The translations under genes and the position numbers were made by a program. Shown here piece by piece: positions 3,123-34,642 of a DNA stretch of 64,000 nt. This stretch comes from Acidobacteriota bacterium (GTDB lineage: Bacteria > Acidobacteriota > UBA890 > WLXD01): positions 416,001-480,000 of the forward strand of contig CAXWPH010000014.1 of the NCBI GenBank assembly GCA_963666055.2, given 5' to 3'. Positions within the stretch are counted from its first letter, which is position 1; the number at the start of each line of letters is the position of its first letter. The notes under the pieces were generated by a model. It did not search any database and had not been told where the DNA came from. It saw only the letters and a list, made by a program, of their open reading frames with translations.

Positions 3123-5695
<2,573 letters not shown>

Positions 5696-30080: not shown

Positions 30081-30770
30081 ATGAGTCACGGCCAGATACC
30101 CAACGAGGCAGATGTCATTGCGGGCTGCAGGCGCGGCGCTCGATGGGCCCGGCAGGCCCTCTTCGAGCGCCATCACCGGGCGATCTACCGGTTTCTGATC
30201 GCTCAGTGCGGCGATACAGCGCTCGCGGAAGACATGACACAGGAGACCTTTCTGCGCGCTTACGAGGCCATGGCCACATTCCGGGGCGATGCGCGCGTGA
30301 GCTCTTGGATGACGCGCATCGCGCTGAACTGCCTGTATGAGGTACACCGACGCCGAGAGGTAAGGCGCCGCTACGTCGAGGGCATTCCTCGGGCTGATCC
30401 TCGGGGCGGCTGGGTCACGGGAGGCATCAGTCGCAGCGAGGAAGCGCGCTTGCAGCGCGATCTCGTCCGCCGAGCCCTGGCTCGGTTGGATCCCGACGAC
30501 GCCTCCATCATCGTGCTGCACGACCTGCAGGGCTACCGATACCGCGAGCTCGCTACCGCGCTGCAGATCGCCATTGGCACCGTAGGCTCGCGGCTGAGCC
30601 GCGCGCGCCAACGGCTGCGGGCCATCGTCAACGAGATTTCGCGACCGCCGGAAGAAAGCGACCTCGCTGCACATCCAACATCCGAATCCGAGGCAACGGA
30701 GTCGGGCGACGGGGTTGAAAGCAATTCACCGTCGACAGCATCCCATCGTGTGGTTTGGAGCGAGCCATGA
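30081..30770 (+). CDS. ECF sigma factor
   Basis: LAEDMTQETFLRAY, SSWMTRIALN, LHDLQGYRYRELA..IGTVGSRLSRAR. Confidence 0.9.
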   Translation: MSHGQIPNEADVIAGCRRGARWARQALFERHHRAIYRFLIAQCGDTALAEDMTQETFLRAYEAMATFRGDARVSSWMTRIALNCLYEVHRRREVRRRYVEGIPRADPRGGWVTGGISRSEEARLQRDLVRRALARLDPDDASIIVLHDLQGYRYRELATALQIAIGTVGSRLSRARQRLRAIVNEISRPPEESDLAAHPTSESEATESGDGVESNSPSTASHRVVWSEP

Positions 30771-31630
30771 GCAGTGCCCGCACACAGTGCGAAGAAGTCC
30801 GGGAGCTCGTTGGTGCGTTCGTCGATGGAGAGCTCGAGCGATCGTCTGCCTCGGCGGTTGAGGAGCATCTGATCGGTTGTCGCAGCTGCGCGCTGCTTCG
30901 TGACGACCTGGTGCGACTCCGTCAGGCCGTCGCAGAACTCGAGCTGCCCGAGCCGGAGCCGGTGAGGATGTGGGCAAACATCGAGCACCGTCTGGCGGAG
31001 CAAGAGCCCACCGCCGTTGGGGCATGGCTGGGCAGCGGACCTGGGGGCTGGAATCGGCAGTTGGTCCTCGCAGCCGCTACCTTCGCCGTCGCCTTTGGGT
31101 TGGGTGTGGCTTATCCCTACGTTTCGGCGCGGCTGCGTCAGCCGGCTCCGGCCACGTTGAATCAACCTCCCCTGACATTGACGGTTGGTGACTACGTGCA
31201 GCAGGTGTCGGGAGGATCACCCGACGCCTTCTGGATACGCTACGGGGCGATCGATACTCAGCCGGGCGCGCTCGCCGACAAGCTCGACTTTCGACCGAAC
31301 GTGCCCGATCGATTGCCGGGCGGCTTCCGAGTTACGAGCGCCAAGCTGCTCAAGGACGCGTGCTGCTACACGGTCCAACTTCGCTACGAGTCGCCGTCCG
31401 GCGTGCTCGATGTGTTCGAGTGCCACGATGATCACCCGGTGTCCTTTGGCGACGTGGAGGCTCGGCGAGCTGAGCTTTCGGGGCTCGCCTACACCAGCCT
31501 CCGTTGGGCCGGCACCAATCTCACGGCTCAGATATTCAACGACGACAACGTCAACATCATTGTCGTCGGCGAGCTCGAGCCAGACCTCGCCGACCGCGTA
31601 GTGCAGGGGTTCCGGGATGCGAGCGACTAG
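30767..31630 (+). CDS. zf-HC2 anti-sigma factor with TM and extracytoplasmic domain containing a Cys-Cys pair
   Basis: CEEVRELVGAFVDGEL...HLIGCRSC; TM; DACCYTV and ECHDDH after the TM; ATGA overlap with the sigma gene. Confidence 0.85.
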   Translation: MSSARTQCEEVRELVGAFVDGELERSSASAVEEHLIGCRSCALLRDDLVRLRQAVAELELPEPEPVRMWANIEHRLAEQEPTAVGAWLGSGPGGWNRQLVLAAATFAVAFGLGVAYPYVSARLRQPAPATLNQPPLTLTVGDYVQQVSGGSPDAFWIRYGAIDTQPGALADKLDFRPNVPDRLPGGFRVTSAKLLKDACCYTVQLRYESPSGVLDVFECHDDHPVSFGDVEARRAELSGLAYTSLRWAGTNLTAQIFNDDNVNIIVVGELEPDLADRVVQGFRDASD

Positions 31631-32174
31631 GCTCCTCGTCTTTCTCGCCGTCGCGGGCGCCGCCTATGCGGCCGCCGTCTTCGACCCCCGGCCTTCCGGC
31701 GAGGGCGTGGCTACCTCTTCCCTTTCCCTACCCGCGGCTTTCGACCGTGAGCCTCTACCTGCCGGCTACGACGGCGTGGAGCTAGACGGGATGCCGTTCG
31801 TGGCCGCGGAGTTGCACGGAAAGGTCGTGCTGCTGGACTTCTGGGCGGTGTGGTGTGCTCCGTGCATCACCGCCGTGCCGAAGCTCAATGGACTGCAGGC
31901 AGAGTTCGGCGGCGATGAGTTCGAGGTGATCGGCTATGCCGTGTACTCCGGGCCGGGCGAGGACGTCGCCAGCTTCGCCCAACAACACGGCATCGAGTAC
32001 CGGGTTGTCGTCGGCAACAACGATCTGACCTTTGACTACGGCGTCATCGGCTACCCCAGCTACTTCCTGATCGACCAAGAAGGTCGGAAGGTCCGCAAGT
32101 ACGTCGGCGCACTGCCCGACCTCCAAGAGCGCATCGGTGCCGACGTTCGCTTGCTGCTCGGAAACGTGCCTTGA
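31617..32174 (+). CDS. TlpA-family thiol:disulfide oxidoreductase (exported/membrane-anchored)
   Basis: GKVVLLDFWAVWCAPC, YGVIGYPSYFLIDQEG; hydrophobic N-terminus. Confidence 0.92.
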   Translation: MRATRLLVFLAVAGAAYAAAVFDPRPSGEGVATSSLSLPAAFDREPLPAGYDGVELDGMPFVAAELHGKVVLLDFWAVWCAPCITAVPKLNGLQAEFGGDEFEVIGYAVYSGPGEDVASFAQQHGIEYRVVVGNNDLTFDYGVIGYPSYFLIDQEGRKVRKYVGALPDLQERIGADVRLLLGNVP

Positions 32175-32197
32175 ATCACTATCAGACAGGAGGAGCC

Positions 32198-33058
32198 ATG
32201 CGACGAATGATCACACGAGCCGTGGTGCTGCTGGTCAGCGTGAGCCTCTGGGCCATACCAGCGGTTCACGGACAGGAGCTCTCGGCGGAGGCCGGCCGCG
32301 TCGTCGACTATCTGCTGCAGGATTGGCAACGCCAGTTCAGCTCGACGACGATTCCACACGCCATGCAGTTCATGGGAATGGACGTTGAAGACGACCTACG
32401 GCTCGAGGTGGTGGCGCACCTACGCGACAACGATGGGCTGGCCCGCAACCTCCAGTGGTGGGGGGCCAACAACTACCTGTTCTCGAACCTCGAGAAGCGA
32501 CTCGCCAAGTACTTGGTCCTCCTCCAGAAGCGCGCCGAGAAGCTGCCGACGGCCACCGAGGCCGCGCAGGCACTCGAGATTTCTGAGGCCGAGCTGCGTG
32601 CCCGAATGGCGTTCATGGCGCAGTCCGGCTTCCTGGAGACGGCTGCCAACGACCTCGGCTTCGCACTAGCACCCGGGTTTCAACGGTGGGCCGGGCCTCT
32701 TCAGCACAACTTCCATACCGTGCGGATCGACGGCAACGCGCCACTCGACGTTTGGTGAGCAATAGACTTCCTGCTGTTGGTCAACAGCGACGAGTACAAA
32801 GACAAGCACATCACCCTAGAGGACTCCTGCGCGCACGGTTATCTGCCGATCAACGTCGAGATCGACGCCGCCGAGATCACCCACCTCATTCCGGACACGG
32901 TGTGGGTTCAGCGGGGCGGTGGCTGAGCGGTCGACAATCTCTTCTGGTCAGAAGAGCACCTGAATGAGTGGTTGGATGAGAACCTGGAATACCGCGAGCT
33001 CAACCAGCAGCCGATTGGCGATTTCCTCGAGGAAATGAAGGCCGGCACGGCCGAGTAA
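32198..33058 (+). CDS. Exported MerB (organomercurial lyase)-like selenoprotein with two UGA-encoded Sec (codons 187 and 243)
   Basis: AGGAGGAG RBS; signal peptide; frame stays open through TGA 32756 and TGA 32924 to TAA 33056; DVW-U-AID / EDSC / GGG-U-AVDNLFWSEEHLNEW aligns by eye to MerB YAW-C96-ALD99 / SHC117 / C159-CHVHFFASVPTAEDW. Confidence 0.85.
32773..32788 (+). promoter_or_regulatory. SECIS-like hairpin 1
   Basis: GCTGTT-GGTC-AACAGC perfect 6-bp stem; 20 nt between TGA 32756-32758 and the loop. Confidence 0.75.
32939..32956 (+). promoter_or_regulatory. SECIS-like hairpin 2
   Basis: CTCTTCT-GGTC-AGAAGAG perfect 7-bp stem; same GGUC loop, 19 nt between TGA 32924-32926 and the loop. 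Confidence 0.75.
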
Positions 33059-33490
33059 GGTCTCCTTCTGTCGGGCCTCACCCTGCTCGCCTTGGCGTCG
33101 TCCGCGCAGCGGTCGCCGAGGCTCAATCGGCGCGCAACGACCTCACCGCGTCAGCGTGTGGTCGGCCGAGTGCCGGACCGGCGATCGCCAGCAGATCGAT
33201 CTTGTCGGCGACCACGTCCTGGTTGGCGAAGGCCTCGTGCACATCGTCTCCCCCGATTGCGTTGACGGGTTCGCTCACGCATAGTCGCTATCATCAAACA
33301 CTTCAATCTTCTGGGACGATGGAGGCTGGTCGGACCCGGATCATGACGGCGTTTAGCTAGGTAGGCACCGAGGGCGAGCTGCTGGGCGGCGAACAGGACT
33401 AGTCGGCCGCCTTTCTGTCAATCTTGACGCCTTGTGCTGAGATGCACTCCGTGTGTCAGAGTGACCCGCGCCCAATCAGATCCTCGGTGG

Positions 33491-34642
33491 ATGCCGGCTG
33501 AGATGGACTTCTCGAGCGGATTTGGTAACTTCGAGGGCCGAGCCTGGCTCAACACGGCACACCAGGGTGCGCTTCCCCTCCGCGCCGCCGACGAGGTCCG
33601 TGAGGCCATCGAGTGGAAGCTCGCGCCGCGAAGTCTCACGCCGGAGCGTTTTCGAGGAGTGCCCGATCGGCTTCGCACCGCCATCGGTCGCCTGCTCCAT
33701 GCTCCGCCTGAAGAGATCATCCTCGCCAACAGCGCCTCGTACGGCCTGCACCTGGTCGCCCAAGCGTTCCCGTGGGAGGCCGGCGACGAGGTGCTGGTGA
33801 TGGCAGGCGACTTCCCCGCCGACATCCTCCCCTGGCTCGCCCTCGAACAACGGCAGGATGTGACCGTCCGTCGCATTCGCCCCGCGCACCGGGTCATCGA
33901 GCCGGAGGATCTCATCGCCGCACTAGGCCCAAGAACCCGCTTGTTGTGCACCACCTGGGTGCACTCCTTCTCCGGCTACACCATCGATCTGGCAGGCCTC
34001 GGGAAGATCTGCCGAGAGCACGGCATCATCTTTCTGCTCAACGTGTCTCAAGGCCTGGGCGCCGCGCCGCTGGATACGCGAACCGCTCCGATCGATGGGT
34101 TGGTGAGCGCCGGGCACAAATGGCTGTGCGGCCCATACGGCACGGGAATCTGTTGGCTCCGTCCCGACCTGCGCGAACGGCTCCGGCAGGTCAAGGCGTA
34201 TTGGCTCGCCATGCAGACGCAGGAAGAGCTCGGCGATGAAGTCGTCGACGTGGCCTTGAAAGAAGGTCTCGGCGCCCGCGCCTTCGATGTGTTCGGGACG
34301 GCGAACTTCTTCAACTTCAAGCCCGCCGCGGCAGCGGTCGAGCTGCTGCTGGAGCTCGGCGTCGAGCGAATTCGAGCGCACGACCAGGCGCTCGTATCGC
34401 GGCTCATTGCCGGACTCCCAGAGCCCTACGAGCTGCTGAGCCCGGCCGACGGGCCGCGCCGCTCGACCCTGGTCTTCATCTCGCACCGCGACCCGGGTCG
34501 GAACCGCGACGTGCATGCAGCGCTGGCCGCCGCAGGGGTGGACATCGCCTTTCGAAACGGCGCCCTGCGGGTTGCTCCGCATCTCTACAACACACCCGCC
34601 GATATCGACCGCGCACTCTCAGTTCTCGATTCGTTCGAATAA
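33491..34642 (+). CDS. Class V PLP-dependent aminotransferase-fold enzyme
   Basis: WLNTAHQG, SAGHKWLCGPYG (PLP Lys), LRVAPHLYNT. Confidence 0.88.
   Translation: MPAEMDFSSGFGNFEGRAWLNTAHQGALPLRAADEVREAIEWKLAPRSLTPERFRGVPDRLRTAIGRLLHAPPEEIILANSASYGLHLVAQAFPWEAGDEVLVMAGDFPADILPWLALEQRQDVTVRRIRPAHRVIEPEDLIAALGPRTRLLCTTWVHSFSGYTIDLAGLGKICREHGIIFLLNVSQGLGAAPLDTRTAPIDGLVSAGHKWLCGPYGTGICWLRPDLRERLRQVKAYWLAMQTQEELGDEVVDVALKEGLGARAFDVFGTANFFNFKPAAAAVELLLELGVERIRAHDQALVSRLIAGLPEPYELLSPADGPRRSTLVFISHRDPGRNRDVHAALAAAGVDIAFRNGALRVAPHLYNTPADIDRALSVLDSFE

Follow-up and report, generated by a model that had tools for sequence, protein, structure and literature searches.

A MerB-fold gene with two in-frame TGA codons, very probably read as selenocysteine, next to a TlpA-like thioredoxin gene in an Acidobacteriota genome

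MerB (EC 4.99.1.2; PF03243; PDB 3F0O, 3F2F and 3F2G; MerB2, 5C17) places a winged helix ahead of its catalytic domain, resides in the cytoplasm and passes its product to MerA. For its signature we follow PMC8261052, and for its mechanism, in which two Cys are metal ligands, the account given in PMC10114901. SaoL (NF040728) is a MerB homolog with a single selenocysteine (Sec), which lies in a CU motif at the Cys159 position, and with Cys at the Cys96 position; it is described as cytosolic, belongs to a nine-gene SAO locus of anaerobes and is truncated in databases (10.1101/2022.07.06.499078). Among the 119 prokaryotic selenoprotein families in Table 1 of a 2026 review, SaoL, with one Sec, is the only MerB-like entry (PMC13188914), and it is likewise listed in PMC9312934. 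Other bacterial proteins with two Sec are also known. NosL (7OG7) has a MerB-related core and is exported, lacks the winged helix and holds Zn or Cu through Cys, Met and Asp ligands, as described in PMC8457098. The thioredoxin TlpA of Bradyrhizobium reduces the copper-binding dithiols of ScoI and CoxB, according to PMC6669012. In the literature searched, we found no account of a MerB homolog that is exported or has two Sec, and a term search of the main texts of BSepDB (PMC13326102) and deep-Sep (PMC12013277) did not return MerB. NCBIfam (June 2026) holds no model dedicated to the family described below; the best E-value among 72 family members was weak, 6.6e-10 to SaoL.

We analyzed a 64,000-nucleotide stretch of an Acidobacteriota genome (the window), in which a MerB-fold gene is the last of four co-oriented genes, after those for an ECF sigma factor, an anti-sigma factor and a TlpA-like protein. 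The features discussed are the following.

30081..30770, + strand: ECF sigma factor, first gene of an apparent four-gene operon (ORF list, family searches, neighborhood comparison)
30755..31630, + strand: zf-HC2 anti-sigma factor with a predicted membrane helix (family search, homolog alignment)
31617..32174, + strand: TlpA/ResA-like thioredoxin with WCAPC and a hydrophobic N-terminus (family searches, neighborhood comparison)
32188..32193, + strand: Shine-Dalgarno sequence AGGAGG, 4 nt ahead of the ATG at 32198 (sequence)
32198..33058, + strand: MerB-fold gene, 286 aa with two TGA codons read through; from N to C, signal peptide, helical N-domain (residues 26-95), winged helix and MerB-type metal-binding domain (sequence, profile search, structure comparison)
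32198..32272, + strand: predicted Sec-pathway signal peptide, residues 1-25, cleavage before Q26 (hydrophobicity heuristic)
32486..32689, + strand: winged-helix-like part, about residues 97-164 (profile search, AlphaFold2 model, VIA-align)
32756..32758, + strand: TGA, codon 187 (U187), likely Sec, equivalent to MerB Cys96 (profile alignment, 40-locus alignment)
32765..32767, + strand: Asp190, equivalent to MerB Asp99; Asp in 34/35 loci (profile alignment)
32772..32789, + strand: SECIS-like hairpin 1, 7-pair stem, GGUC loop at 32779-32782 (covariation)
32828..32830, + strand: Cys211, equivalent to MerB Cys117; Cys in 35/35 loci (profile alignment)
32924..32926, + strand: TGA, codon 243 (U243), likely Sec, equivalent to MerB Cys159 (profile alignment, 40-locus alignment)
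32939..32956, + strand: SECIS-like hairpin 2, 7-pair stem, GGUC loop at 32946-32949 (covariation)

With TGA read as U, the frame runs from the ATG at 32198 through 186 codons, a TGA, 55 codons, a second TGA and 43 codons to the TAA at 33056-33058. Retranslation of 32198-33058 matched, letter for letter, the 286-aa read-through product given in a preliminary description of the window. The table-11 ORF list ends this frame at 32758, that is, at the first TGA. Third-position GC is 0.81, 0.84 and 0.79 in the three segments of the frame and 0.58 in the same frame beyond the TAA. The GC codon-position pattern runs on through both TGA codons. The read-through frame is not due to chance.

We aligned 40 loci, comprising the window's own, four from genomes and all 35 from a metagenome scan. 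Both codons are TGA in 35 of them (27 distinct sequences, with identity among two-TGA loci down to about 47%); two of the other five have an in-frame deletion between the sites and three do not reach the sites. No locus of this alignment that reaches a site has a codon other than TGA there. Amino-acid identity was higher past the first TGA than before it in six of six pairwise comparisons. In an example pair, 48/55 and 31/37 residues are identical past the TGAs versus 112/157 before, with many synonymous changes. We read these patterns as purifying selection past both TGA codons.

An alignment of 158 proteins (the query plus homology-search matches, with the window's own truncated entry excluded) revealed how such genes enter the databases. 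Just as the preliminary description had expected of standard gene callers, 108 of the proteins break off immediately ahead of a site, 83 at site 1 and 25 at site 2, as read from the protein entries. Ends of the other 20 incomplete proteins are scattered, with at most two per position, and a few end calls are alignment artefacts. Because so many entries stop exactly before a site, surveys for merB would miss the family. Cys occupies both sites in 12 of the 158 proteins, which are natural homologs of 263-342 aa. Trp occupies both in two database proteins, P0004 and P0112, which are best read as code-4 gene calls. One locus (L059) has an extra TGA at a Trp column; otherwise TGA codons sit only at Cys columns. 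Haft & Gwadz (10.1101/2022.07.06.499078) ask of a new selenoprotein family that it have ten or more examples, 100% of them with TGA at the site, that similarity run through U and that Cys homologs of like length exist. Here, TGA stands at both sites in 35/35 loci that span them (27 distinct), similarity runs through both U positions and the Cys homologs are of like length.

Some copies are rearranged. L063 and L066 have lost, in frame, the 56 codons between the two TGA sites. The first 12 nt of the two sites are alike in many copies (U-A-V-D at both). The deletion reflects either recombination or an assembly artefact. The repeated U-A-V-D motif may stem from SECIS constraints or from an internal duplication of the fold. 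About ten fetched copies are broken (deleted, frameshifted or truncated); they include L018/G014, L075/G039, L076/G228, L077/G317, L059, L064, L068 and L071. The copy in G039 adjoins an IS630-like transposase. G317 has only a 3' remnant of the MerB-fold gene and no selA over cut-off.

The TGA codons could instead be real stops or errors, in a pseudogene or a split gene, or be read as Trp or Cys. The broken copies in relatives and the Trp/Trp proteins P0004 and P0112 are what such readings would predict. However, TGA recurs at exactly these two codons in 27 distinct sequences that diverge to about 47% identity, and purifying selection extends beyond both. In addition, neighboring genes terminate in TGA, and the tRNA with anticodon TCA in this genome was identified as tRNA-Sec. 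We consider stops, errors or Trp/Cys recoding extremely improbable.

The source genome (5.7 Mb, 95.7% complete) contains selA, selB and selD over curated cut-offs and tRNA-Sec, so the machinery that the preliminary description had named as worth searching for is all present. The two tRNA-Sec calls lie in one 8-kb stretch that is present twice at 99.9% (C6:1-8030 and the end of C13), probably a contig overlap. Among the 11 other genomes that match the family profile, selA is over cut-off in 10, with G317 as the exception. In the source genome, in-frame TGA also occurs in 8/17 AhpC/TSA matches and 1/7 molybdopterin matches, in U-x-x-C-type or UHGP contexts. The eight TGA-bearing AhpC/TSA-like genes, on contigs C15, C6, C5, C12 and C14, are probably unannotated selenoproteins of a Sec-rich Acidobacteriota genome. 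ARAGORN also called a tRNA with a CTA anticodon, labeled tRNA-Pyl, at G000:C5:65608-65685.

Each TGA is followed by a SECIS-like hairpin, whose GGUC loop begins 21 nt (hairpin 1) or 20 nt (hairpin 2) past its TGA. A GGUC loop is also found in the SECIS of E. coli fdhF. Across 22 distinct sequences per site, 97.4% of the cells of hairpin 1 and 100% of those of hairpin 2 are paired. We counted eight and five double-sided compensatory changes, respectively, which represent few independent covariation events because the sequences are related. The covariation score was reached by 0/500 shuffles, and slid controls scored lower. Some of the paired changes in the stems are not silent in the protein (L-V-N to V-V-T; W to R), which fits selection acting on the RNA. 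In three more distant loci, L031, L034 and L036, the TGA codons are followed by this loop at this spacing, as is the second TGA of L033. Folding energies of the two 50-nt hairpin windows were no better than those of shuffles (z -0.66 and +0.63), and no Rfam family matched 32600-33200. A genome-wide scan for the hairpin pattern matched 54 of 135,924 TGA triplets; this shows rarity only, since the pattern was derived from the two sites themselves and the genome's other Sec codons, which have other loops, escaped it. The two-Sec read-through suggested in the preliminary description is thus backed by TGA at both codons in relatives, Cys/Cys homologs, Sec machinery and covarying hairpins. Our analyses predict, close to certainty, that Sec is inserted at both UGA codons of the MerB-fold gene.

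The single sequence gave only weak matches to MerB, in Pfam (PF03243, E 8e-4, 19.8 bits, cut-off 27) and in the PDB (E 0.043). A 72-sequence profile matched MerB2 5C17 at E 1.8e-13, across both the winged helix and the catalytic domain, and MerB 3F2G at E 1e-4. We built an AlphaFold2 model with Cys in place of Sec (pLDDT 93.2, pTM 0.88). All 11 Foldseek matches at E<=0.001 were MerB or MerB2, and VIA-align returned MerB at Z 8.5 (rmsd 2.1, 114 aligned) and MerB2 at Z 8.3. Profile search, Foldseek and VIA-align agree on a MerB fold with an upstream winged helix. The profile alignment pairs W-C-A-L-D of MerB with site 1 and D190, S-H-C with C211, and Cys159 with site 2. The residue mapping previously made by eye (U187 to Cys96, D190 to Asp99, C211 to Cys117, U243 to Cys159) came out the same in the profile and structure searches.

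Residues 1-25 have the basic, hydrophobic and small-residue parts of a signal peptide, pLDDT is low at residues 1-20, and homologs show, by eye, a small-x-small|Q cleavage pattern. A quick midpoint-rooted tree, which supports no order of events, was built from the 129 of 158 rows that cover at least 120 residues of the common core. The query falls inside a 66-row clade (SH-aLRT 98), in which the hydrophobicity heuristic is positive for 62 rows. Within this clade, one member has Cys at both sites and another has Cys at site 1. Other MerB-like branches lack the N-terminal extension, and one is lipoprotein-like. Together, the heuristic and the homologs favor the signal peptide noted in the preliminary description, and the MerB-fold protein is very likely exported.

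The TlpA partner and the sensor pair, which the preliminary description did not mention, bear most on the mechanism. In 34 of 43 loci, some of them near duplicates, the MerB-fold gene is preceded on its own strand by a TlpA homolog, which adjoins it or is fused to it in 28 and is separated from it by one gene in 6. Among the nine loci without it, six have about 200 nt or less of upstream sequence and three are 5'-truncated remnants. In G134, TlpA and the MerB-fold protein form one protein. By analogy with its known partners, TlpA is likely the reductant of the MerB-fold protein. The sigma/anti-sigma pair is kept in G006, G009, G010 and G014, and BlaI/M56 pairs occur in other loci. Beyond its membrane helix, the anti-sigma factor has an invariant Cys-Cys and Cys-His-Asp-x-His in 5/5 sequences, with no Pfam match to this extracytoplasmic part, which makes it a candidate metal or thiol sensor domain. 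A distant anti-sigma factor in L054:59-592 keeps the Cys-Cys.

At the locus itself, we found neither a sigma-70 promoter nor a convincing terminator. Downstream of the MerB-fold gene, an aminotransferase class V gene (33434-34642) was considered as a Sec lyase, a role that its score does not support (65.7 bits, cut-off 525); it is also far below the cut-offs of desulfurase models. Upstream of the sigma gene, L016:3307-3810 and L073:4874-5455 encode an exported-looking protein with a single Met-Pro-Cys and no meaningful Pfam match, which looks HMA-like by eye. In L059 (about 3900-4100), a thioredoxin-like gene with S-P-T-U-P-V-C lies upstream of TlpA and is probably another selenoprotein; a similar gene occurs at L058:5698-6069.

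A thioredoxin as the constant neighbor also raises the possibility of a redox enzyme, in which U187 and U243 would cycle between selenolate and diselenide with TlpA as the stoichiometric electron donor. Its substrate would be an oxidized metalloid, a peroxide, or an oxidized thiol or thioether in the envelope. Consistent with this, the one near-constant neighbor is a thiol-disulfide oxidoreductase (34/43 loci, one fusion) and not a metal gene, and the Cys-Cys anti-sigma factor could sense oxidants as well as metals. We know of no redox-catalytic protein with the MerB fold, however. Most characterized selenoproteins do combine a thioredoxin-like fold with a redox motif (PMC13188914), but the two Cys of MerB act as metal ligands in the account of PMC10114901, and metal-handling genes recur around several unrelated copies. 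On balance, a redox enzyme seems unlikely to us.

We profiled the neighborhoods for metal genes, running Pfam on 105 of the 203 called neighbor ORFs. In three genomes of one genus (G006, G009 and G010), a second, cytoplasmic MerB-like gene lacking Asp99 lies within 5 kb, and the same span contains a CopZ-like gene and a MerR-family regulator that matches the MerR/ZntR models best but stays below cut-off. G006 adds a weak MerT match in that neighborhood. MerB-like neighbors over the Pfam cut-off, with Cys-Cys-Ala-Val/Leu and without Asp99, are found at L074:9090-9725, L016:6898-7656 and L073:11349-11966. Elsewhere, L048 has a MerB-like gene nearby, L045 has CusA/CzcA over cut-off, L057 has CusF, and L071 has a CopZ-like gene and a flavoprotein without the C-terminal cysteines of MerA. 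Several other loci have no metal gene among their neighbors. The richest metal context comes from one genus with three related genomes, and the neighbors point to Cu as much as to Hg.

The source genome, at 95.7% completeness, yielded no MerA or MerR over cut-off, no MerT and no other MerB, which extends to the whole genome the earlier remark that merA and merT are missing. It has one DsbD_TM-family gene. Of 12 genomes searched for MerA, one had a match over cut-off, and the MerB-like gene there is of a different branch. HgcA, which would link the family to mercury methylation, was found in 0/5 genomes, including the source genome. The family is patchily distributed. The broad family profile matched 13 of 401 genomes of the phylum, some of which have other MerB-like branches and one of which (G023) has only a helix-turn-helix protein. 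Among four other genomes of the source genus, three had no match and G001 had another branch only. In G001, a shorter MerB-like gene (L033, G001:C93:4116-4358) has TGA at both ligand positions and Glu replacing Asp99. Short MerB-like genes in L034 (G103) and L036 (G270) combine Cys-x-x-Asp at site 1 with a TGA where MerB has Cys159.

These neighborhoods would also suit a non-catalytic metal chaperone or buffer of the envelope, similar to NosL or ScoI, that cleaves no carbon-metal bond. Once reduced by TlpA, its two selenols would take up Cu(I), Ag(I) or Hg(II) for delivery to efflux or a client protein. NosL 7OG7, an exported Cu(I) chaperone that the preliminary description did not mention, was the third match in VIA-align (Z 5.4, rmsd 3.6, 111 aligned), below the tool's distinctive level. 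The known role of TlpA is to reduce metal-binding dithiols (as described in PMC6669012), CusF, CusA/CzcA and CopZ-like neighbors occur in relatives, and the source genome has no mer operon. The reported copper binding of a MerB D99S mutant (PMC10114901) indicates that the MerB site is adaptable. Against a chaperone, MerB scored clearly above NosL in every search, and the acid equivalent to the catalytic Asp99 is kept in 34/35 loci. The ligands of NosL are Cys and Met of its own N-terminal region, as described in PMC8457098. We view a chaperone or buffer as somewhat unlikely.

At a little under even odds (about 0.45), we propose that the MerB-fold protein is an exported bis-selenolate site for soft metals that is kept reduced by TlpA, probably with MerB-type chemistry. 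An envelope trap with MerB-type protonolysis is preferred on two grounds, the intact triad and the repeated presence of metal genes in the neighborhood. SelB and tRNA-Sec would decode both UGA codons through the hairpin behind each, and the chain would leave the cell unfolded by way of its predicted signal peptide. The envelope is oxidizing, and a diselenide would form there between U187 and U243; TlpA, fed by the genome's DsbD/CcdA-type protein, could reopen it. R-Hg(II) or another soft metal(loid) would then be ligated by the two selenolates, with Asp190 protonating the carbon as Asp99 does in MerB. As no MerA was found, the metal would not be reduced in the cytoplasm; the protein would hold it or pass it on to carriers in the envelope and to efflux. 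Metal or thiol stress may induce the operon through the ECF sigma factor and its Cys/His-bearing anti-sigma factor.

Hg is held very tightly by selenium, and thioredoxins reduce diselenides with difficulty; on both counts turnover is doubtful. We retain the chaperone and the redox enzyme as alternatives for three reasons: the constant partner is TlpA and not a metal gene, no MerA was found, and selenolates should release Hg only with difficulty. A bolder version of the preferred soft-metal site, which we rate as improbable, is a MerA-independent envelope module. In it, an exported two-Sec lyase would cut carbon-metal bonds before uptake, and TlpA, wired to DsbD/CcdA, would replace MerA and strip or reduce the bound metal. 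Such a module would occur widely in marine and subsurface bacteria, and merB surveys would overlook it, since a UGA truncates every copy.

A real two-Sec MerB-fold family is well supported by the sequence evidence, with a probable location in the envelope and a thioredoxin that appears dedicated to it. Sec/Sec, Cys/Sec and Cys/Cys members form a natural series within one family, in which the role of selenium in a mercury-binding site could be studied. Hg-Se chemistry demethylates methylmercury abiotically, as reported in PMC10114901. If the protein turns out to be a chaperone or reductase, it would represent a second use of the MerB/NosL fold.

Compared with known systems, the two-Sec protein is MerB-like in architecture and lies outside the membership of both MerB and SaoL. 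The MerB models all score below their cut-offs (PF03243 19.8/27, NF033555 18.5/200 and NF009710 18.1/193 bits), as does the SaoL model NF040728 (13.2 bits, cut-off 140). Like MerB, the protein has a winged helix followed by a catalytic-type domain, and the positions of Cys96, Asp99, Cys117 and Cys159 are conserved but occupied by likely Sec, Asp, Cys and likely Sec, with TGA at the Cys96 and Cys159 positions. Identity to MerB is 16-21%, and the protein adds a signal-peptide-like N-terminus and an extra helical N-domain of about 70 aa. With SaoL it shares Sec at the Cys159 position and truncation in databases. However, it has two Sec, site 2 reads G-G-G-U-A with no CU motif, and it has a predicted signal peptide and a TlpA/ECF context. 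Its flanking genes encode the sigma factor, the anti-sigma factor, TlpA and the aminotransferase; SaoC matched in 0/7 genomes, and the control likewise had no match anywhere. NosL shares export and the MerB-related core (Z 5.4) but has 7% identity to the MerB-fold protein and no winged helix, and no nos families occur among the 105 scanned neighbor ORFs. TlpA with ScoI and CoxB, a periplasmic thioredoxin dedicated to the metal-binding pair of its partner (as described in PMC6669012), provides the model for the pairing proposed here. In this locus, the partner would be a MerB-fold selenoprotein rather than a Sco protein or a cupredoxin, as gene order and one fusion suggest, and coupling to TlpA would take the place of the cytoplasmic transfer from MerB to MerA.
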